Source: Dehalococcoidia bacterium
GTDB lineage: Bacteria > Chloroflexota > Dehalococcoidia > Lucifugimonadales > UBA3495
DNA length: 64,000 bases
Direction of reading: 5' to 3'
Assembly: GCA_034423215.1 (NCBI GenBank)
Contig: DAOUIY010000067.1
Location: 52,265-116,264, forward strand
Shown: positions 7,382 to 64,000 of the stretch, piece by piece
Layout of the letters: each line of letters starts with the position of its first letter
How positions within the stretch are numbered: the first letter of the stretch is position 1
The notes under the pieces: generated by a model
Databases searched by the model: none
The model's input: only the letters and a program-made list of their open reading frames with translations
What the model was told of the DNA's origin: nothing
Position numbers and translations under genes: made by a program

Positions 7382-7945
7382 GAAAATCTACTCCCTTTCC
7401 AACGTGCGCCTCCCTCGGCCTGACCTGTTCATATTTCGAGTCTAATGTATCCTGTAAACTCCCCTCACCCTCCCCTGCAATTCAACAGGAAAAACAACAG
7501 TTCAGATGCCGTAGGGGCAAACGCCGGAGAAATAAATATTGAATATCGTGCAACCGTCCCGCCGCCGCCGCGATACTAAGTTAAGAAAGGACGTGGGCGC
7601 AGCCAGGAACAGGCAGCCGGCCCTATTTAGACGTACTTGGGCCGGCGTGAGCATAACATAAAGCATCAGCTTTAGGAAGATTTATCGCCTTGAATGGGAA
7701 ACATCCGGGCATTTGGTGGGAATATTCAGCCTTGACAAATGCCGTGAGCGGCATATTTCGACGGAAAATGGGACTATCAGCGCGGAACGGCAACGTGTTC
7801 AGGCGTCAACGCGCCGGAATGGATTGAACCGCCTAAAATGCCTCGAAACGGCGTGCCGAGGTAAGGCCTGCCCTGCGGATGTTGAGCAGGCCGCACTGCT
7901 CAGCAACCTAGCGGCTCAAATTACTCGAACTGATGGATAATGTTT

Positions 7946-8008
7946 CCGCTCACCCTGAGCTTGTCGAAGGGCCGCCCCCTCATGCTTCGACAGCCTCACC
8001 ACCAGCGG
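7946..8008. repeat. REP/MITE-like element, family B (CTGAGCTTGTCGAAG...CTTCGACAGCCTCA)
   Basis: Imperfect inverted repeat, same arms as 11043-11112, 43013-43075, 62429-62507. Confidence 0.7.
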
Positions 8009-8052
8009 ACTTCCGATTTGCCCACCGTTTCTCGGGTGCATCGTCAAATTCA

Positions 8053-8121
8053 CCGTAGTTCCCGCCTTTGCAGGAATCTCGACTACAGCCAGTCAAGGTT
8101 ACCGCCTTCGCAGGAACGACG
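8053..8121. repeat. REP/MITE-like element, family A (degenerate)
   Basis: GTAGTTCCCGCCTTTGCAGGAATC...CCGCCTTCGCAGGAACGACG followed by AAATGGGAC as at 32193. Confidence 0.7.
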
Positions 8122-8303
8122 AAATGGGACGTTCGCAAGCTTCAACTTTCAAGTTGGCGACGGGCCCCAGGGCGATGGACCACCGGATTTCATTCGGTGT
8201 CGGGTGGTTACGCAGGAATAATTCGCAAAATGAGACCGGCGGATTCGGTTCACTCCGCCGGTCTTGAAATGGGACGTGCCCTTTTGCCAAGGCAGTCAGG
8301 TTG

Positions 8304-8753
8304 TCAGTGGTGCGCCCCGGAGAAAATCTCCGCGGTTACGCTGGTGCTGGGGGTCGCCACGGCGACCGAACCATAGAGGGGTCAACGCCGCTTCCACTGG
8401 TCCACCAGGTACTGTCCCTGGTCGTCATCCAGCCCCCAGATCTGGAAGTGGACTTTTATGTCGTCATAAACGCTGACCGTGCCTTCGTCGGCAATAGAAG
8501 CCCGGTCGGGGTCCCGGTAGGCTTCGACACTAACGTCCATCCAGTTGACAGGAATTTCCTCGCCGCTGGCTATGCGCTCCACCATGTTAACGGCGCAAGC
8601 GGTAATGCCGGACAGGAAAAGTTCGCCGGCGCCAACCTCCTCGCCGCCGGAGCCGTCGGCCACCCAGTGGTGATTGCGAGTGTTGCAGATGGCACGCCCC
8701 GGGGTGCCGGTGCTGTAGCTGTGTACCCGATAAGCCAGGGTTAGTTCCGCCAT
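8304..8753 (-). CDS. OsmC/Ohr-family peroxidase, predicted selenoprotein (Sec at in-frame TGA 8382-8384, residue 124 of 149)
   Basis: First Cys motif LSGITACAVNM. Reading through TGA gives WKRR-U-PLYGSVAVATPSTSVTAEIF, restoring the second C-P motif and the final strand of the OsmC fold. Stem-loop right after the TGA. Confidence 0.8.
8352..8367 (-). promoter_or_regulatory. Putative bacterial SECIS hairpin of the OsmC gene
   Basis: mRNA GGUCGC-CGUG-GCGACC at +15..+30 after UGA; perfect 6 bp stem, GU in loop. Confidence 0.7.
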
Positions 8754-13530: not shown

Positions 13531-16500
13531 ATGAACTGGATCGGCTCCCTATTCTGGCTTCTGCCCAGGCGCCTGCGATGGTCGTGGGGCCTGCTGCTGG
13601 TGACCGGCTTCGGAGTGCTGGCGGCGGTGACCATCATGTCCGTTGGCGCCGTTTACACCCGTGCCCTGGCCGAAGCCGGGCTGCAGCACAGCCTGGCCTC
13701 CACCAACCCGGCCATACTCAACACCCACATCATCGCCCAGAACCGTCCCCTTGGCCCGGCGGACTATAGCTCGCTGCGGGACACCATGGATGAAATAGCC
13801 AGGCAGCGGCTGGGCTTCATGCTGCGGGACACCCAGCGATACGGACGGGCCCAACCCGACCTGCTCCTGGTCCAGGAACCCTTCCAGGCTTCCCAGGTGC
13901 TGGGCGCCCCGGCGGCGCGGCCCTTTTTCCTCACCGACTTTGAAGAGCACGTCCGGGTGGTCGAAGGCCGGTGGCCCACTCCCACGCCCGCCGAGGACGA
14001 GGGCAGGCTTTCCATTGAGGTAGCCGTGGGGCCGGACACTGCCAGCGTCATGTTCTGGGAAATTGGCTCGGAAGCGGTCATTCTCCCCTACCGTTCAGAC
14101 CTGGACGAGCAGATACACATGACGGTAGTCGGCATCATGGAACCGGTGGACACCACCGAAGAGTATTGGATGGGTTTCCGCGACTACTTCGGGCCGCAGG
14201 AAGTGGGGGAAGTGGTGCTGATGCCCATGTACCTGCCGGAGGAGCTTTTCTTTAACGGCCTGGGCGCCCGCTACCCGACCCTGGTGGGAGACTTCGGCTG
14301 GTACTTGTACCTGGATACCGACGTGCTGAACGCTGACCTGGTAGCCCCGACCCGCCAGGCCTTCAACCAACTGGAAACCGACATAAACAAGCAGGTGCCC
14401 CGTTCCCTCATCCTGACCAGGCTGGAAAACAGCCGCGATACCGGGCTCTTGGCCCAGTACCAGCGGTCCCTCACCCGCGCACGCGCTCCCATCTACCTCT
14501 ATATCTCCCTGGCCTTGGTGGTCATTCTCTACTTTTTGACCGTGGTGACGGGGCTGCTGGTAGCGACTCGCAGCGAGGAGGCGGGGTTGCTCCGGAGCCG
14601 GGGAGCCAGCATGCTCCAGGTCGGCGCCGTCATAACCCTGGCCGAGGCCCTTATCGTTGTCGTCTCAACCGTTGTGGGGCCTTTCCTGGCTCTGCTCCTG
14701 TTCCGGCTGCTGCTGTTTGACACCATAGACCCCAAGGGCGGCACCGAGGTACTGGAGATAGGGCTACGGGCCGACATGTTCATTTTCGGCGCCGTGGGCG
14801 GGCTGATGAGCCTGGCGGTGCTTCTGGCCGCCAACTTTAACCTGACCCGCCTCGGGTTGCTGGACTTTCTGAGGGAAAGGGCCAGACCGCCGGCCGTGCC
14901 TTTCCTGCAGCGTTATTATGTTGACCTGCTGGTGGTTGCCGCCCTGGGGCTGGTATGGTGGCAGGTGGAGCAGCGGGGGGGCTTTCTTGAACGAACTCTA
15001 ACCACCGGACGGGCCCAACTGGACCCGAGCCTCCTGCTGGCGCCGTCGCTGGCCCTGTTGACGGCGGCATTCCTGGTACTGCGGCTCCTTCCCCTGGTGG
15101 TAAGAGTCCTGGCGTGGCTGGCCCGCTGGGCGGCGCCGGCGTGGGCCGCCTTTGCCCTGGCCCGGGTGGCCCGGGACCCGCTTCCCTATGGTTCGCTGAT
15201 AGTTATTGTGATGCTGTCCGCGGCGCTGGGCGTTTTTGGCGCTTCCTTCCAGTCCACGCTGGAGCGCAGCCAGCGGGAGCAGGCCCTTTACCGCACCGGC
15301 GGCGACATGGTGGTAAGCGTGATAGCTCCCACGGGCGATACCCAGGCCAACATTGCCGCCCTGCCTGCGGTGCACTCCTTTACGCCGGTAGAGCGGGAGT
15401 CGGTGACTTTGCTGGACACCAGGCCCGGCTCTTCGGCCACCCTTCTCGCCATTGACCCGGTAACCCTGGTGGACGTTGCCTGGTATCGTGAGGACTTTTC
15501 GCCCACGGGCAAGACCCTGTCGGGCCTGTTGACGCCCCTGAGGCGGGGCCAGTCGCGGCTGCCCGACCTCAGCGGCAATCTGCCTACCGGTATTCCCATT
15601 CCTGAAGAGGCCGAGAGCATCGGCCTGTGGGTGAACACCGAGAGCATTGCCGACAGCGCAGTCCAGCAGAGCCTGAGCCTGTGGGTGCGGCTGGTAGATG
15701 CCGATGGCAGCCACTTCAACCTGGACATGGGGGACATCGAACTCTCCCCGGGAGGCTTGCGGAACCCCGTGCCAGGCGGCGCAACCCAACCGGCCCAGGC
15801 CGGGTCGGCCAACCCGGGCCAGGAGGACGGGGGCGAACCGGACACGGAAGGACAAGGCGCGGCAGAGTCAGACCCGGCGTGGCGCTATTTCGAGGCCCCC
15901 ATTCCGGTGGAAAAGTACTGGCTGGACCTCCCTCACAGCGTTGTAGCGGTCTTTTTTGTGGGTCGGTCCCTTTACCGTATGCCGCCAGGCTCCGTTGACG
16001 TGGACGATGTCACCGTCAAGCTGAAGTCACCCGGCTCCGCCGCCTCAGCGGAACCAGACTTGCAGGTAATCGAGGACTTCGAGGATATAGGCCGGTGGGT
16101 CGCCCTTCCTCACGACGGCGATACGTCGGACCGGGCGGGCGTCTCCCGCCGGGCGGGGCGGGGCGACGGGCAGGGCATGGAGTTCACCTGGCAGGACCCA
16201 CTGCTGCAGGCGCCCCGGGGCTTCTTCATTCCCCCCGGAGACTTTCCCCTGGCAGCCGTGGGCAGCCCTTCCCTGGCCGGACCGGGCGCCTTGAGGGTCA
16301 ACCTGGGCCGGCAATTGGTGCCGCTGCTGGTGCATGACACGGTCCTTCACTTTCCCACCATCTCCGAGAGAAACAAGCCCTTCCTGATAGTGTCGCTGGA
16401 GTCCCTCCAGGACTATACCAGCCGAATTCCCAGGGGCATCCCCATTCCCCCTCGGCAATACTGGCTGGCCCTGGAATCGGGCGCCGACCGGGAGCAGGCA

Positions 16501-17019
16501 GTCCGCTCCATTCGCGAGGCCACTTCCGTTTCGGCCAATATAATAGACCGGGCCGGCCTGGTGGACCGTGCGGAGAGAGACCCCCTGGCCGGCGGAGGAT
16601 GGAACGGGCTGACCCTCCTGGGCCTGGGTACTCTCACCATCGTGGTCACTCTTACCCTGGCTACCCACGCCCTGGTGGCCGTCCGGTCCGCCCGGGTTGA
16701 CCTTACGGTAGTCCGCGCCCTGGGGTTGTCCCAACGCCAGGTGCTGGGGATGCTGGTGCTGGAGCGGGTCCTGGTGGCGGTCCTGGGACTGGTTGCAGGG
16801 ACGGTGATAGGCTATTTCCTGGGCCGCTGGACCCTGGGGTTCCTGGAAATCTCCGCCAGCGGCATCCCGATAATTCCTCCCATGATACAGACGGCCCAGC
16901 CCTGGCTCATTGCCCTGATTATCGTGAACCTGGCAATCGCGACAGTCCTGGGCACGGTGGTGGCCGTGCTGGCGGCGGTAAGGCTAAAGCCCTCTGATAT
17001 ACTGCGAAACAGCGGGTAG
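13531..17019 (+). CDS. Large MacB/FtsX-type ABC permease (two FtsX modules)
   Basis: About 1160 aa; RSEEAGLLRSRGAS and RVDLTVVRALGLS FtsX signatures; large extracytoplasmic domains. Confidence 0.88.
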   Translation: MNWIGSLFWLLPRRLRWSWGLLLVTGFGVLAAVTIMSVGAVYTRALAEAGLQHSLASTNPAILNTHIIAQNRPLGPADYSSLRDTMDEIARQRLGFMLRDTQRYGRAQPDLLLVQEPFQASQVLGAPAARPFFLTDFEEHVRVVEGRWPTPTPAEDEGRLSIEVAVGPDTASVMFWEIGSEAVILPYRSDLDEQIHMTVVGIMEPVDTTEEYWMGFRDYFGPQEVGEVVLMPMYLPEELFFNGLGARYPTLVGDFGWYLYLDTDVLNADLVAPTRQAFNQLETDINKQVPRSLILTRLENSRDTGLLAQYQRSLTRARAPIYLYISLALVVILYFLTVVTGLLVATRSEEAGLLRSRGASMLQVGAVITLAEALIVVVSTVVGPFLALLLFRLLLFDTIDPKGGTEVLEIGLRADMFIFGAVGGLMSLAVLLAANFNLTRLGLLDFLRERARPPAVPFLQRYYVDLLVVAALGLVWWQVEQRGGFLERTLTTGRAQLDPSLLLAPSLALLTAAFLVLRLLPLVVRVLAWLARWAAPAWAAFALARVARDPLPYGSLIVIVMLSAALGVFGASFQSTLERSQREQALYRTGGDMVVSVIAPTGDTQANIAALPAVHSFTPVERESVTLLDTRPGSSATLLAIDPVTLVDVAWYREDFSPTGKTLSGLLTPLRRGQSRLPDLSGNLPTGIPIPEEAESIGLWVNTESIADSAVQQSLSLWVRLVDADGSHFNLDMGDIELSPGGLRNPVPGGATQPAQAGSANPGQEDGGEPDTEGQGAAESDPAWRYFEAPIPVEKYWLDLPHSVVAVFFVGRSLYRMPPGSVDVDDVTVKLKSPGSAASAEPDLQVIEDFEDIGRWVALPHDGDTSDRAGVSRRAGRGDGQGMEFTWQDPLLQAPRGFFIPPGDFPLAAVGSPSLAGPGALRVNLGRQLVPLLVHDTVLHFPTISERNKPFLIVSLESLQDYTSRIPRGIPIPPRQYWLALESGADREQAVRSIREATSVSANIIDRAGLVDRAERDPLAGGGWNGLTLLGLGTLTIVVTLTLATHALVAVRSARVDLTVVRALGLSQRQVLGMLVLERVLVAVLGLVAGTVIGYFLGRWTLGFLEISASGIPIIPPMIQTAQPWLIALIIVNLAIATVLGTVVAVLAAVRLKPSDILRNSG

Positions 17020-32395: not shown

Positions 32396-34615
32396 TCACT
32401 CCCCCGCCCGATATATGGACGTCTCGGGGTAGAAGGAATACCAGCCAAACCAGTAGGCATTGTGGCTGGGTATGCGCTCCGGGCGCAGGGTGGGGTCTTC
32501 CACGTTAACCAGGGCGGTCTCTTCCACCCTCCACAACCGGCCTTCGCTGTCGGTGAGAACCGTCGTGTCGGGGGCCTCGCCCTCCTCCAGGATAAACGTC
32601 CGCTCGCCCCGGTGGTAAGCCCTGCTGCCCAGGTGGCCTATCGTGACCATCACCAGCGGCTGCCCCCCCAGTTCGTCGTTGACCACCCGCTGCTTCCTGA
32701 GCGTTTCCAGCGGGTACGCCCTGGCCTCGCCGTTAATGCGCAGTCCTATCACCTGGCCCTTGGTGGTAAGGGCATCGCTTGACCGCCAGACGGGGAACAT
32801 GGTCTGGGGGCTCTCCCGGTAATTGAAGTAGATGGACCGGCTGTCCCACTCCGACTGGTAAAATTGGCCCGGATAAAGTCCGGTTTCCTGGTCCAGCACC
32901 GTGGTATCGGGATGGGCCGTTATCCATTCCTTCCAGGTTGTGGTCACCACCGGAAGCAACTCCAGCCGGGCGCCGGTTCCCACCAACGGACCCGCGGCAG
33001 GCACGCCCGTGAACTGGTTCCAGAGGGTGTGGGTCTTACGGTCGTACATCAGCTTGTTGCTGCGGTATAGCATCCCGGACGTGCCAAATTCTACCCTTTC
33101 CCCGTCGATGTTGGTGGAATACACGATTCCCGCTCCGCAGAGGGTTCAATATGCCAGCGCGAAGGGCACGCCGCCCACCACGTCGTTGGCCATTTCGTGG
33201 GCGTTTACAATGCGGTGGGGGTAGGCACGGTGCTCGCCGTTGAAGGATACGCCGAAGACCCGGTCCTCCGGGTCCAGGTAGTCGGCATCGGCCCCGGCAA
33301 TGACCGGGGCGTCGGTCAAGTCGGGAATCTGGTCCTTTCCCACACCGCCCCAGACTATTTCCTCAACCCGGATGTTGGCGGGCATGCCCTCGTAGAGGAA
33401 GGCGCCAGTTTCCACGTTGACCAACTCGGAAAAGAGGGTGCCCTTCCAACCGGTAAAACCTGGGGGAGGCCATACATCCGGGCGCTGGCCTATCCATACA
33501 ACCCAACGGAACCACTCATCCGGCTCCCGTTCCGCCTCAACCGCCGCTATGGAAGGATTCCGGGCGGCAATCCGGTCCAGCGAGTCAAAAATGGCTAACT
33601 CTACGGACCGGTCCCTGAGCCACCAGGGAAACCGCATCAACTCTACCAGTACGGGAATGAAGGCCGGGTCGCCCGTCTCCCCCATCTTCTCAATGTCCCA
33701 GGGGTCTCCCAGCAGCGCAGAGTCCAGGGCATCGTACATCAGCCTGTTTGCCGAGCTTCTTTCCGTACCGGGGTTGGGTCCGGGGACATGCCACCGGGAC
33801 AGGTTACGAGTTGCATCGGCGCAGGATACCAGCCTCAAGTCCCGGCGCAGGTGGGAAGGCCCGCCGGCCGGCTCACCCTCGCCGGGGGCTACAGTCAGGC
33901 ACACTTCTCGGTCCGCAGTGCGCAGTGAGCCGTCGGCGCCGTGAACAAACTGCTGGTTAGGGCTGTCGCTGCACGGACGGGTATATACCAACTCCCCCTC
34001 GGCCTCCATGCAGAGGTCGTGGGCGGCCATGTAAAGGCGCCCTGCAATGGGCGCGTTAACGGTGAAAAGTTCGTCATTGGCGCCCGGCTTGCAGGTGTGG
34101 GCCTGCAGGGGCCGGTCCACCCCCAGGTTGTTGCCAAACCCGGGAATGTCCACGCAGTAAAACTCGGGTTCGTCCAGCGGGTCAATAAGCTGGATGAGGG
34201 TTTCAACCACCTCGGGGGACTCTGTGGCAGGCTGGGGGTCAGGCGCACCGTTCTGTGCAGACTCAGGAGCAGCGTCTTGCGAAGTTGCGGACGCTGTTGA
34301 GGGTCCCGACTGACCGGCCTCGGAGGTTGAGTCCGTCGAGGGGCCAGGCGATGTGGCAGTGGAGCCGGAGTCCTTTGCAGCCACCCCGGCCTCGGCAAGG
34401 GCAATGGCCGCCGACCCGGAAGAGGACTCGTCCTGCCCACCTGCCGGGGCAACCGACACCGATGAACCGCTTTCGATTCCCGCGCTGCTGGTCGGCGTGG
34501 TGAGTTCCGTGCCATCTCTGCTGTCCGAATTTTCCGAGCCACAGGCAATCGGAAACGCCAGCAGCGTCAGCAAGGCCGCAACGGCCAAAAGAGTCCTGAA
34601 ATGGAGGCCTAGCAA
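32396..34615 (-). CDS. DUF3179-family lipoprotein with ricin-type lectin domain, predicted selenoprotein (Sec at in-frame TGA 33146-33148, residue 490 of 739)
   Basis: ORFs 33146..34615 and 32396..33124 are in the same frame, 7 codons apart. Join reads HEMANDVVGGVPFALAY-U-TLCGAG, the family YCxxC motif, then EFGTSGMLYRSNKLMYD and AYWFGW. Lipobox PIAC. Confidence 0.85.
33116..33130 (-). promoter_or_regulatory. Putative bacterial SECIS hairpin of the DUF3179 gene
   Basis: mRNA GGAAU-CGUGU-AUUCC at +16..+30 after UGA; possible outer pairing ACCCU(+1)/AGGGU(+49). Confidence 0.6.
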
Positions 34616-36588: not shown

Positions 36589-37194
36589 TTGATTTCTCAC
36601 GCAGAACGGCAAGTCCTGGTTACCGTTGCCGACGAATTTCGCCGGGAAGTCTCCGAGGCATGGCTGGAAGGGGTAACCCAGGCCGCCCTGGCCGTGGCCC
36701 TGGCGGCGGACGAACCGGGCCAGGTGAGCCTGCTGGTCACTGATGACGCTACAATTAAAGAACTGAACCGCTCCTACCGGGGCCTGGACGAGATTACCGA
36801 CGTGCTATCCTTTTCCGCCGTTCACCAGGGGCACTGGCAGGGAGAAATTGCCGACCCATACAATCCCGAACCCGAACCCGAACCCGAACCCGAAACCGGT
36901 CTCGCTCTCGACCCTGTGCTGGGCGCGGGAGAGGGGGAAACGTGGCCCGACTTTGTCCTGCCGCCCGGCGAGCTTCCGCCCCTGGGTGAGGTAATTATCT
37001 CCTACCCCCAGACCTGCCGGCAGGTGGAGGGCCTGGAACGTACGGCCGCCGAAGAACTGGCCCTGCTGGTGGTCCACGGCATCCTTCACCTGGTGGGCCA
37101 CGACCATGCCGAACCCGATGAAACCGCCCGGATGCAGGCCCTGGAAAGGGCGGCGCTGGAGCGGTTCTTCGGCGACGGGGAGGATGAGACATGA
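36589..37194 (+). CDS. ybeY: rRNA maturation endoribonuclease YbeY
   Basis: LNRSYRG, TDVLSF, LGEVIIS, HGILHLVGHDH. Confidence 0.95.
   Translation: MISHAERQVLVTVADEFRREVSEAWLEGVTQAALAVALAADEPGQVSLLVTDDATIKELNRSYRGLDEITDVLSFSAVHQGHWQGEIADPYNPEPEPEPEPETGLALDPVLGAGEGETWPDFVLPPGELPPLGEVIISYPQTCRQVEGLERTAAEELALLVVHGILHLVGHDHAEPDETARMQALERAALERFFGDGEDET
36865..36894 (+). repeat. (CCCGAA)5 in-frame microsatellite in ybeY
   Basis: Encodes PEPEPEPEPE. Confidence 0.9.
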
Positions 37195-39338: not shown

Positions 39339-39956
39339 ATGACCCTGGAGCACCTGCCATCCGCCGCACCTTCCCTGGCGCGGCTAATCCAGGAACTCAA
39401 CAAGCTGCCCGGCATTGGCCCCAAGAGCGCCCAGCGGCTGGCTTACTTCATCATTCGCCTGCCCGACGAGGAAGCCTACGACCTCGCCAACGCCATCAGC
39501 GCAGTCAAGCAGAGCATCATGTTCTGCAGCCAGTGCCAGAACCTCACCGACGCCAGCCCCTGTGCCGTTTGCGCCAATGACCGCCGCAACCGGGAGCAGA
39601 TTTGTGTTGTGGAAGAGCCCATGGACGTGCTGGCCCTGGAGAGGACCCACTGCTACCGGGGCCTGTACCACGTTCTTCACGGCGTCTTGTCCCCCCTGAA
39701 CGGGGTGGGGCCGGACCAGTTGAAACTGCGGGAGTTGTTTGCCCGCCTCTCCGACGGGGCAGTCAAGGAAGTGGTCATTGCCACCAACCCCACGCTGGAG
39801 GGCGAGGCTACCGCCATGTACATCTCCCGCCATCTGACCGGTACCGACGTAAAGGTGACCCACCTCGCCCGGGGCCTGCCCGTGGGCGGTTCCCTGGAAT
39901 ACACCGACGAACTGACGTTAAGCCGAGCCTTCCAGGGTCGGCAAGCGGTAGAGTAG
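39339..39956 (+). CDS. recR: Recombination mediator RecR
   Basis: LPGIGPKSAQR, C4 zinc finger, ICVVEEP, YHVLHG, EGEATA, GSLEYTD. Confidence 0.97.
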   Translation: MTLEHLPSAAPSLARLIQELNKLPGIGPKSAQRLAYFIIRLPDEEAYDLANAISAVKQSIMFCSQCQNLTDASPCAVCANDRRNREQICVVEEPMDVLALERTHCYRGLYHVLHGVLSPLNGVGPDQLKLRELFARLSDGAVKEVVIATNPTLEGEATAMYISRHLTGTDVKVTHLARGLPVGGSLEYTDELTLSRAFQGRQAVE

Positions 39957-62428: not shown

Positions 62429-62507
62429 CCGCTCATGGTGAGCCTGTCGAACCATCAACCTGCCAAACTGTTAAAGGGCGGCCCTTCGACAAGCTCAGGG
62501 TGAGCGG
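62429..62507. repeat. REP/MITE-like element, family B
   Basis: CCGCTCATGGTGAGCCTGTCGAACC...CCCTTCGACAAGCTCAGGGTGAGCGG. Confidence 0.75.
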
Positions 62508-62885: not shown

Positions 62886-64000
62886 ATGAGCAAATCCAGC
62901 CGCAACATTCTGGCTCACTTCACCCCGCTACTGTTGCTGGTCCTGCTCTGGGCCGCGGCGGCCGGCTGCTTCCCGGCGACGGATGTAAGTACCCAGCCGG
63001 CCCAGAACACGGTTGCGGACTCCCCCGCCAACTCCCCGGCAGTCTCGGGACAGGCCAGCCCCAGTGGGACGGGTGACCAGCCTGCGGAGACGTTGCCGCC
63101 TCCAACCGTCCGCGACATTCCCACCGCTCCCCCCGCTGCCGAGCCAACCACCAGGCCGCTGGCCGGCTCCGAGGAGGGTTCAAATTCCCAGGCCGCAGCG
63201 GACGCTTCCGCTCCGAATTCCGGTACACCGGACGCTGGCACGCCCCAGGAAGCCGCCACGGAAGAAGCCGCCACGGAAGAAGCCGCCACGGAATCCCTGT
63301 CGCCGGGCTCGGTGCCGGCCATATTCGAAGAGCTTGACCTGTTGGAGGACTCGGCCTTTGGCTACCTGAAGGAACTGGCCGAAGGGCTGGGCCCCAGGAC
63401 CAGCAGCACCGACCTGGAGAAGGAAGCCGCCGAATACCTGATGCAGCGGTTCGAAGACCTGGGCTACAGTCCCCGGCTGCAGGAGTTCTCGCGGGCGTCA
63501 ACCAGGGCAACCGTATCCGTGACCACCCCTTCCCTGGGAGAACTGGAAAGCAATACTCTGGACGGCGCCGCTCCGGGGGAAGCCACCGACCGGCTGGCGT
63601 TCGTGGGACTGGGCAAACCCGGGGACATTCCCGAGGAGGGCCTGGCAGGAAAGATTGCGTTCATCGAGAGGGGCGAAGTCACTTTTGGCAGCAAGGTTGC
63701 CCAGGTTGAGCGGGCCGGAGCAGTCGCAGCCATAATCTTCAATAACGTTGACGGGAACTTCCGCGGGACCCTCGGTGGCAACAGCCGCATACCGGTGGTG
63801 TCCCTTTCCCGGGCCCATGGCCTCCGCCTGCTGGAGTCCCTTAACGAGGGAACCGCGGTGGAAGGGACCGTGGTCGTGGCAGAAGACGCGCTGCCCTCCC
63901 GCAACGTCATCGCGGAACTGGCCGGCGCCGGCGAGGGTGTAGTGGTGGTAGGCGCCCACTTCGACACCGTGCCCGATTCCGTGGGCGCTTCCGATAATGC
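62886..64000 (+). CDS. M28 family aminopeptidase with PA domain, lipoprotein (partial, runs off window)
   Basis: Read manually: lipobox AAAGC, low-complexity linker, KIAFIERGEVTFGSK PA domain, VVVGAHFDTVPDSVGASDN. Confidence 0.9.
   Translation, partial: MSKSSRNILAHFTPLLLLVLLWAAAAGCFPATDVSTQPAQNTVADSPANSPAVSGQASPSGTGDQPAETLPPPTVRDIPTAPPAAEPTTRPLAGSEEGSNSQAAADASAPNSGTPDAGTPQEAATEEAATEEAATESLSPGSVPAIFEELDLLEDSAFGYLKELAEGLGPRTSSTDLEKEAAEYLMQRFEDLGYSPRLQEFSRASTRATVSVTTPSLGELESNTLDGAAPGEATDRLAFVGLGKPGDIPEEGLAGKIAFIERGEVTFGSKVAQVERAGAVAAIIFNNVDGNFRGTLGGNSRIPVVSLSRAHGLRLLESLNEGTAVEGTVVVAEDALPSRNVIAELAGAGEGVVVVGAHFDTVPDSVGASDN
63249..63293 (+). repeat. 15-bp tandem repeat x3 (GAAGCCGCCACGGAA)
   Basis: Encodes EAATE x3 in the peptidase linker. 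Confidence 0.9.

Follow-up and report, generated by a model that had tools for sequence, protein, structure and literature searches.

Predicted SECIS hairpins after the in-frame UGA codons of a DUF3179 gene and an OsmC-like gene from a Dehalococcoidia bacterium

Two genes, each interrupted by one UGA

The window analysed here, a stretch of 64,000 nucleotides, comes from a SAR202/Dehalococcoidia (Chloroflexota) bacterium and carries on its minus strand two genes in which an in-frame UGA is predicted to be read as selenocysteine (Sec). Distances marked + are counted from the first nucleotide after the UGA. The features of the two loci are the following:

32396-34615 (-): predicted DUF3179 selenoprotein gene, a single frame with the TGA at 33146-33148 as its sole interruption
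33146-33148 (-): putative Sec UGA codon of the DUF3179 gene, residue 490
33116-33130 (-): predicted DUF3179 SECIS core hairpin, +16 to +30, GGAAU-CGUGU-AUUCC
8304-8753 (-): predicted OsmC-like selenoprotein gene, 149 codons, motif R-U-P-L-Y-G
8382-8384 (-): putative Sec UGA codon of the OsmC-like gene, residue 124
8352-8367 (-): predicted OsmC-like SECIS hairpin, +15 to +30, GGUCGC-CGUG-GCGACC, with its loop at 8358-8361

The start codon of the DUF3179 gene is uncertain, the first possible one being the TTG at 34615. Its product shows a lipoprotein-like signal, an S/T/P-rich linker, a Ricin-B lectin domain (Pfam Ricin_B_lectin, 1.1e-06) and a DUF3179 domain, and the Pfam match to the latter (residues 427-732, 3.5e-75) runs across the UGA, where the frame reads ...VPFALAY-U-TLCGAGIVYSTNIDG... 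and gives the motif Y-U-T-L-C-G (UxxC). A protein search with DUF3179 returned full-length homologues at 50-60% identity together with about 45 fragments of about 240-250 amino acids (mostly 242) which start just past the UGA; they represent Sec genes that gene callers have divided. Scanning the species-representative genomes of GTDB for relatives yielded 80 loci, all labelled Dehalococcoidia, Chloroflexota/Chloroflexi or SAR202 except for one Actinomycetes. A TGA occupies the aligned codon in 83 relatives and in the window gene, that is, in 84 of 84 Sec genes of the Dehalococcoidia clade, and the same loci also hold five paralogues with TGC at this codon. The Sec genes are under purifying selection on both sides of the UGA, with protein identities going down to about 50%, and homologues carrying TGC at the UGA position align the UGA with a redox Cys. 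Taken together, these comparisons indicate that the UGA is probably the selenocysteine codon of a real gene.

The OsmC-like gene presents a comparable picture. Its true stop is the TGA at 8304-8306, the frame around the internal UGA reads ...LVDQWKRR-U-PLYGSVAVATPSTSV..., and the Pfam OsmC match (residues 39-133, 2.1e-10) extends across the UGA. Among database homologues, the Sec forms end at the UGA (119-123 amino acids) and the Cys forms, which read WK[RQ]RCPLYGSVATAT, have 145-152 amino acids. A metagenome scan for relatives gave 80 loci, and the aligned codon is TGA in 67 genes (66 relatives and the window gene) and TGC or TGT in 12 homologues. Purifying selection acts here too on both flanks of the UGA, among Sec genes with protein identities down to about 61%, so that this UGA is likewise best read as the selenocysteine codon of a real gene.

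UGA is otherwise an ordinary stop in the window: of the 13 TGA-ended frames only these two go on as coding sequence, and the 11 other genes do not extend as coding past their TGA. A model of codon usage derived from the window favours the frame downstream of both Sec UGAs; under this model the DUF3179 TGA is the only in-frame TGA of the window flanked on either side by strong coding signal, and a scan of the window brought up no candidate beyond the two. The window and related loci totalling about 2.1 Mb yielded neither tRNA-Sec nor selA, selB or selD. No tRNA-Sec came out of tRNA scans covering the window and 104 loci, the window itself containing no tRNA gene, and an Rfam scan of it returned no match. 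This organism presumably has a Sec machinery. Full Sec machinery is described for Dehalogenimonas (PMC4918011), and SelA and SelB are present in most sponge-symbiont bins of the study which yielded the SAR202 bin22 (PMC5649159). On a 502-kb contig of this bin the two genes lie about 24 kb apart in a syntenic arrangement, compared with about 25 kb in the window.

Hairpins written into the codons

The 30 nucleotides following the UGA are ACCCTCTGCGGAGCGGGAATCGTGTATTCC in the DUF3179 gene (33145-33116, minus strand) and CCCCTCTATGGTTCGGTCGCCGTGGCGACC in the OsmC-like gene (8381-8352, minus strand). In the former, five base pairs (+16 to +20 with +26 to +30) close the loop CGUGU at 33121-33125, of which the bases G22 (33124) and U23 (33123) are invariant in the 84 sequences. 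Third codon positions within this segment (+18, +21, +24, +27 and +30) are 93-100% fixed among the 84 Sec genes; at +3, +6, +12 and +15 the leading base has a share of just 46-71% in the same genes, and past +30 most third positions stand at 40-76%, with higher values at +42 (90%) and +60 (83%). Pairing at the five core pairs is kept in about 99.7% of cases; A-U to G-U, G-C to G-U and one mismatch are the sole departures. A sixth pair can form between +15 and +31, as C-G in 31 distinct sequences and as U-A in 26. RNAalifold predicted this helix independently.

The Cys forms of the DUF3179 family are informative for separating the protein from the RNA. In three distinct Cys genes the peptide is unchanged, C-T-L-C-G-[AS]-G-I-V-Y, but the codons TAC, GGC or GTC are used and the hairpin is lost. 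The codon UAU is present in all 84 Sec genes and never in the Cys forms with the same peptide, which have TAC, and the Cys paralogues (QCVLCGSGV[VI]YS) lack the hairpin as well. The rare codons GGA, UAU and UCG are frozen only in the Sec forms, and there only at paired sites.

The OsmC-like hairpin consists of six base pairs (+15 to +20 with +25 to +30) and the loop CGUG. In an alignment of 66 Sec sequences the pairing of its helix is complete (100%), against 17-83% for controls slid along the alignment, and compensatory changes occur at two of its six pairs, one from G-C to A-U through G-U intermediates and the other from C-G to U-A; none of 500 shuffles reached the covariation score. RNAalifold gave the same helix. 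Third positions are 91-97% fixed within +15 to +30 versus 48-71% at +3 to +12, and the loop bases G22 and U23 are invariant in the 66 sequences, with the loop itself varying to AGUU in two sequences and to GGUC in the divergent Sec gene of locus L108. The Sec forms read V-A-V-A-T and the Cys forms V-A-T-A-T, with variable third positions in the latter; the Cys forms encode Thr where the Sec forms have Val (GUG), and therefore the loop GU is absent from them.

Each in-frame UGA is followed, from 14-15 nucleotides onward, by a stem of 5-6 base pairs and a loop of 4-5 nucleotides with G-U as its second and third bases. In the mechanism that we propose on the model of E. coli and Moorella, SelB would attach to this loop with its C-terminal domain at the moment when the UGA occupies the ribosomal A site, and the loop-bound SelB would deliver Sec-tRNA(Sec) to the UGA. 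Both hairpins are built out of codons: the loop GU is formed by the first two bases of the Val codon GUG in each, the DUF3179 stem consists of Gly-Ile/Tyr-Ser codons and that of the OsmC-like gene of Ser-Val-Ala/Ala-Thr codons. With hairpins made in this way, selection on the RNA becomes visible as frozen third positions and as the Thr-to-Val difference of the OsmC-like family.

[quoted passage not shown] Both elements lie in the coding region with stems beginning at the distance given above, and their dimensions (4 nucleotides and 6 base pairs in the OsmC-like gene, 5 nucleotides and 5-6 base pairs in the DUF3179 gene), their loops CGUG and CGUGU, where G at the second base is followed by U, and their spacing of 20 nucleotides to the loop all fall within this model. 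The OsmC-like element also agrees in energy, with -13.2 kcal/mol for a 49-nucleotide segment and -11.1 kcal/mol for the RNAalifold consensus. For DUF3179 the 49-nucleotide segment folds at -10.1 kcal/mol, non-conserved lower pairs included, and the conserved core alone (the RNAalifold consensus) at -4.8 kcal/mol, so that its agreement with the energy limit depends on whether those lower pairs are counted; its sole departure from the model is this short and weak conserved core, with no conserved lower stem detected up to +48. The energies do not distinguish these short elements from shuffled sequence, segments of 49-62 nucleotides being in neither gene more stable than shuffles (z from +0.95 to -0.53), and the support for the hairpins comes from the comparison with relatives and not from folding energy.

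The SECIS of E. coli fdhF presents its loop GU at about +20/+21 after the UGA, versus +22/+23 in the DUF3179 and OsmC-like genes. The fdhF loop carries GGUC/GGUCU, as do the OsmC-like variant of L108 and the UGSC genes of Dehalococcoidia described below. Compared with fdhF and fdnG, the hairpins of the window lack a conserved bulged U in the 5' arm, and their stem is much shorter. We found no SECIS work specific to SAR202 or Chloroflexi in the literature.

Thirty similar nucleotides and the probable coding origin of their first half

An earlier note on this DNA had put the two post-UGA segments side by side and proposed UGA-NCCCUCU-NN-GG-NN-CGG-NNNN-CGUG-NNNN-CC as a candidate SECIS consensus of the lineage, with which its whole selenoproteome could be mined. 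The observations behind it hold: both segments are on the minus strand as quoted, they are identical at 17 of 30 positions (+2 to +7, 10, 11, 14-16, 21-24, 29 and 30), and each forms a stem under a CGUG(U) loop. The note was also right in taking the differing blocks for stem arms, each gene having a conserved hairpin whose loop begins at +21 with G22-U23, and the covariation across relatives that it had suggested looking for is found in the compensatory pairs of the OsmC-like helix and in the C-G/U-A sixth pair of DUF3179. An identity of 17/30 is unusual, though the pair was chosen after the fact: random in-frame pairs of 30 nucleotides from the window genes gave on average 8.8 matches, with P(>=17) of about 0.002, and for the first 15 nucleotides, where 10 are identical, the same kind of pairs gave P(>=10) of about 0.004. 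The 33-nucleotide pattern matches only these two sites in the window, which is true by construction, and it follows none of the 11 true TGA stops.

The nature of the shared positions points to the protein for the first half of the pattern. Among the 17, +3, +6 and +15 are third codon positions which are free in at least one of the two families, and seven further shared positions between +1 and +14 belong to the first two bases of the codons for P/T, L, Y/C, G and S/A. In both families L-x-G is also present in the Cys forms, where there is no SECIS, and those of the OsmC-like family have the whole of P-L-Y-G-S. Because of these free third positions and of the residues kept where there is no SECIS, the upstream half CCCUCU..GG..CGG is to be read as shared coding (U-x-L-x-G) that apparently carries no RNA signal, which bears out the caveat on shared coding (x-L-x-G) expressed in the earlier note; we attribute the identity of the first 15 nucleotides to a chance similarity of peptides (U-P-L-Y-G-S versus U-T-L-C-G-A). 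Constraint at the RNA level is limited to +15/16 to +30, where third positions are 91-100% fixed. Within that segment G16, C29 and C30 match between the families but pair with different partners, and the only shared RNA-level feature is C21-G22-U23-G24.

A scan of 161 sequences (2.1 Mb) for in-frame TGAs which lie between coding flanks, and at whose codon other loci also have TGA or Cys, recovered further selenoprotein genes on the same contigs of relatives. One of them, a BtuF-like periplasmic binding protein (ICEV-U, Pfam Peripla_BP_2), is present on 18 OsmC-like contigs, directly downstream of the OsmC-like gene on several of them and 1-3 kb away on others. UGSC (PF24696) shares contigs with DUF3179 in two Dehalococcoidia loci (L050 and L068) and with the OsmC-like gene on three metagenome contigs, and GrdB or GrdB-like genes were recovered as well. 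The predicted hairpins of these genes are:

BtuF-like: CUCGGC-AGGUK-GCCGAG, loop from +17, GU at +19/20
UGSC (Dehalococcoidia): loop GGUCU, GU at +20/21
UGSC, second type (L120, L147 and L153): loop UGUAG, GU at +20/21
GrdB-like (L129): loop CGU, GU at +19/20

Where a hairpin is clear, the GU of the BtuF-like, UGSC and GrdB-like genes sits 2-3 nucleotides nearer to the UGA than in the OsmC-like and DUF3179 genes, and across all these Sec families the loop starts are spread over +17 to +21. For the GrdB-like genes reading TSTUPVC and for GrdB proper the hairpin is ambiguous, since alternative folds compete in sequences which are few and too similar.

We also searched 1.58 Mb of Dehalococcoidia DNA for hairpins with a stem of at least 5 base pairs and a CGUG(N) loop at +19 to +23 after a TGA. 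The output comprised the DUF3179 genes, the OsmC-like gene of the window and about 11 other matches, while control triplets gave 4-31. Ten of the other matches were translated and rejected as lying in non-coding frames; the match at window position 39855, which has the same sequence as one of these ten, appears to be out of frame and was rejected too. A look-alike, TGAACCCTCCTCGGAGCCGG at 63182 (-), was discarded because its frame, antisense to a plus-strand gene, is non-coding. In the 1.58 Mb no credible hairpin of this type was found beyond DUF3179 and OsmC-like genes.

Weighing the readings, and the place of the two genes among known families

The reading that we prefer, with a probability of about 0.85, is that the window holds members of two known selenoprotein families, each with its own canonical bacterial SECIS, and that the likeness upstream of the hairpins is a coincidence of coding. 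That the UGAs are not Sec codons at all but true stops, pseudogene lesions or sites of ordinary read-through, the conservation reflecting only protein or codon-usage constraint, could be argued from the lack of Sec machinery genes in the window and the related loci and from one orthologue (L166), in which TGG replaces TGA. The contig of L166, however, has a coverage of only 2x, and a UGA retained in 84 and 67 genes between flanks under purifying selection, in alignment with the redox Cys of homologues, makes this alternative extremely improbable, as do the rare codons frozen only in Sec forms where they are paired, the compensatory changes and the fact that both are established selenoprotein families. 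The proposal that the complete 30-nucleotide pattern is an extended consensus required by the SelB of the lineage, capable of finding all its selenoprotein genes, draws on the presence of the pattern at both Sec UGAs of the window, on its absence after true stops and on the low probability of the 17/30 identity among random coding pairs. We consider it very unlikely: 150 orthologues show no constraint on the third positions of the upstream block, the full pattern fits without mismatch only 6 of the 84 DUF3179 and 16 of the 67 OsmC-like Sec genes, the peptides of the upstream block persist in Cys forms, and the CGUG-loop search brought only these two families above background. Moreover, the BtuF-like, UGSC and GrdB-like genes on relatives' contigs differ from the pattern at 9-14 of its 20 fixed bases, so that other selenoprotein genes lacking the motif, the finding which the earlier note itself had named as contradicting its proposal, do occur in close relatives and on the same contigs. 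What stands of that proposal is the pair of UGA-linked SECIS hairpins; the 30-nucleotide sequence as a lineage-specific consensus for mining is not supported, its loop and spacing being common to these two families only.

A narrower version would retain only the loop, with CGUG exactly at +21 as a site preferred by SelB in SAR202/Dehalococcoidia on which the two families converged, other loops being tolerated. The same loop does occur at the same distance in two unrelated families (78 of the 84 and 65 of the 67 genes), as well as in a divergent DUF3179 paralogue of L023. Nevertheless, the GU is supplied by a Val codon at a position where the DUF3179 Cys paralogues have Val or Ile and the closer Cys forms Val, and the OsmC-like family includes the AGUU and GGUC variants; the persistence of the loop across the 66 OsmC-like Sec relatives, on many separate metagenome contigs, suggests that it may travel with the gene family. 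Sec genes of the same genomes use AGGUK, GGUCU, UGUAG and CGU with the GU at +19 to +21, and a loop of four nucleotides common to two of about six families is a weak argument, noticed post hoc. We therefore regard such a preference as unlikely. It is similarly improbable that the SelB of this lineage has an unusually sequence-specific optimum, a very short stem bearing the loop CGUG exactly 20 nucleotides past the UGA; if true, this would explain both the convergence of two unrelated genes and the freezing of a 15-nucleotide DUF3179 element across 84 genes with identities down to about 50%.

Under the preferred reading of two known families with canonical elements, the genes are ordinary: further members of catalogued families which fit the general bacterial SECIS model. 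Their importance beyond annotation is slight. Standard gene callers split or truncate both, hence the 242-amino-acid and 119-123-amino-acid fragments in databases, and flagging them as selenoproteins would repair the annotation across a large clade of uncultured Dehalococcoidia from the sea, from sponges and from other environments. They also offer a clean case of a SECIS apparently written into codons, with frozen third positions, rare codons restricted to Sec forms and a Thr-to-Val change that gives the loop its GU, and they advise caution, in that coding constraint has to be subtracted before the likeness of two SECIS regions is read as an RNA consensus.

DUF3179 (UxxC/T), OsmC-like, UGSC, BtuF (CxxU) and GrdB are all listed selenoprotein families (PMC9312934, PMC13188914). 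The genes of the window share their Pfam domains with the DUF3179 (PF11376) and OsmC-like (PF02566) selenoproteins of the Sargasso Sea and GOS surveys, and have Sec likewise at the redox Cys. Two differences can be noted: compared with the surveyed family, the DUF3179 protein of the window has in addition the N-terminal lipoprotein signal, the linker and the Ricin-B lectin domain, and the OsmC-like motif is U-P-L-Y here versus the UxxT listed in reviews.

Further copies and variants of the Sec-containing DUF3179 gene

In some genomes there are two DUF3179 paralogues with Sec, separated by about 6 kb, and a divergent one was found in another genome, where the stem of the SECIS hairpin differs and CGUG is again located at +21..+24 after the Sec-UGA. 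In a further orthologue, the codon that is TGA in 84 others is TGG (Trp), and the SECIS hairpin GGAATCGTGTATTCC is still intact. Since the coverage of this contig is only 2x, the TGG may stem from an error in sequencing, or else Sec may have changed to Trp very recently.

L058, L061, L078, near 16450-16590: second Sec-DUF3179 copy
L023:4630: divergent Sec-DUF3179 paralogue, motif ITY-U-PLCNTAFVF
L166:1571-1621 (ENA contig ctg350188_2x): DUF3179 orthologue with TGG codon
Window 33149-34615 (-): N-terminal half of the DUF3179 selenoprotein

In the window's protein, the N-terminal half combines a Ricin-B lectin domain with a lipoprotein-like signal (..LAFPIAC) and a linker that is long and rich in S/T/P/A, and these features suggest a surface-exposed, sugar-binding selenoprotein.

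Neighboring selenoprotein genes in relatives

In several genomes of Dehalococcoidia, genes of the UGSC family and GrdB-like selenoprotein genes lie at most 10 kb from the gene for Sec-DUF3179, which suggests that selenoprotein genes are loosely clustered there. On 18 contigs with the OsmC-like gene we found a BtuF-like periplasmic binding protein gene (motif I-C-E-V-U) with its own conserved SECIS, CUCGGC-AGGUK-GCCGAG; it is directly downstream of the OsmC-like gene on several contigs and 1-3 kb off on others. This gene is absent from the window, where a gene-poor stretch takes its place.

L050 offset 1874, L068 offset 8676 (-): UGSC-family/GrdB-like genes
L043:16212, L051:16652, L067:18608, L077:12440: UGSC-family/GrdB-like genes
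L155:10498-11433, plus 17 further OsmC-like contigs (e.g., L090, L112, L150, L160): BtuF-like gene

Other elements of the window

Recoding was rejected for the TGA of a ybeY-like gene (HLVGHDH motif; window 37188-37194 (+)): this stop overlaps the dnaX start in an ordinary gene overlap, an arrangement kept in 17 relatives.

Window 8233-8262 (-): GC-rich inverted repeat gaccggcgg...ccgccggtc, then T-containing tract
Window 7947-7972 (+) and 62481-62506 (-): 26-nt repeat CGCTCACCCTGAGCTTGTCGAAGGGC

The OsmC-like gene has its true stop about 40 nt before the inverted repeat, which is probably the terminator of that gene. The two copies of the 26-nt repeat are exact, inverted in orientation and 54 kb apart, and may constitute a dispersed repeat element; the first is found just downstream of the OsmC-like gene, inside a stretch with few genes that spans about 900 bp (7400-8300).
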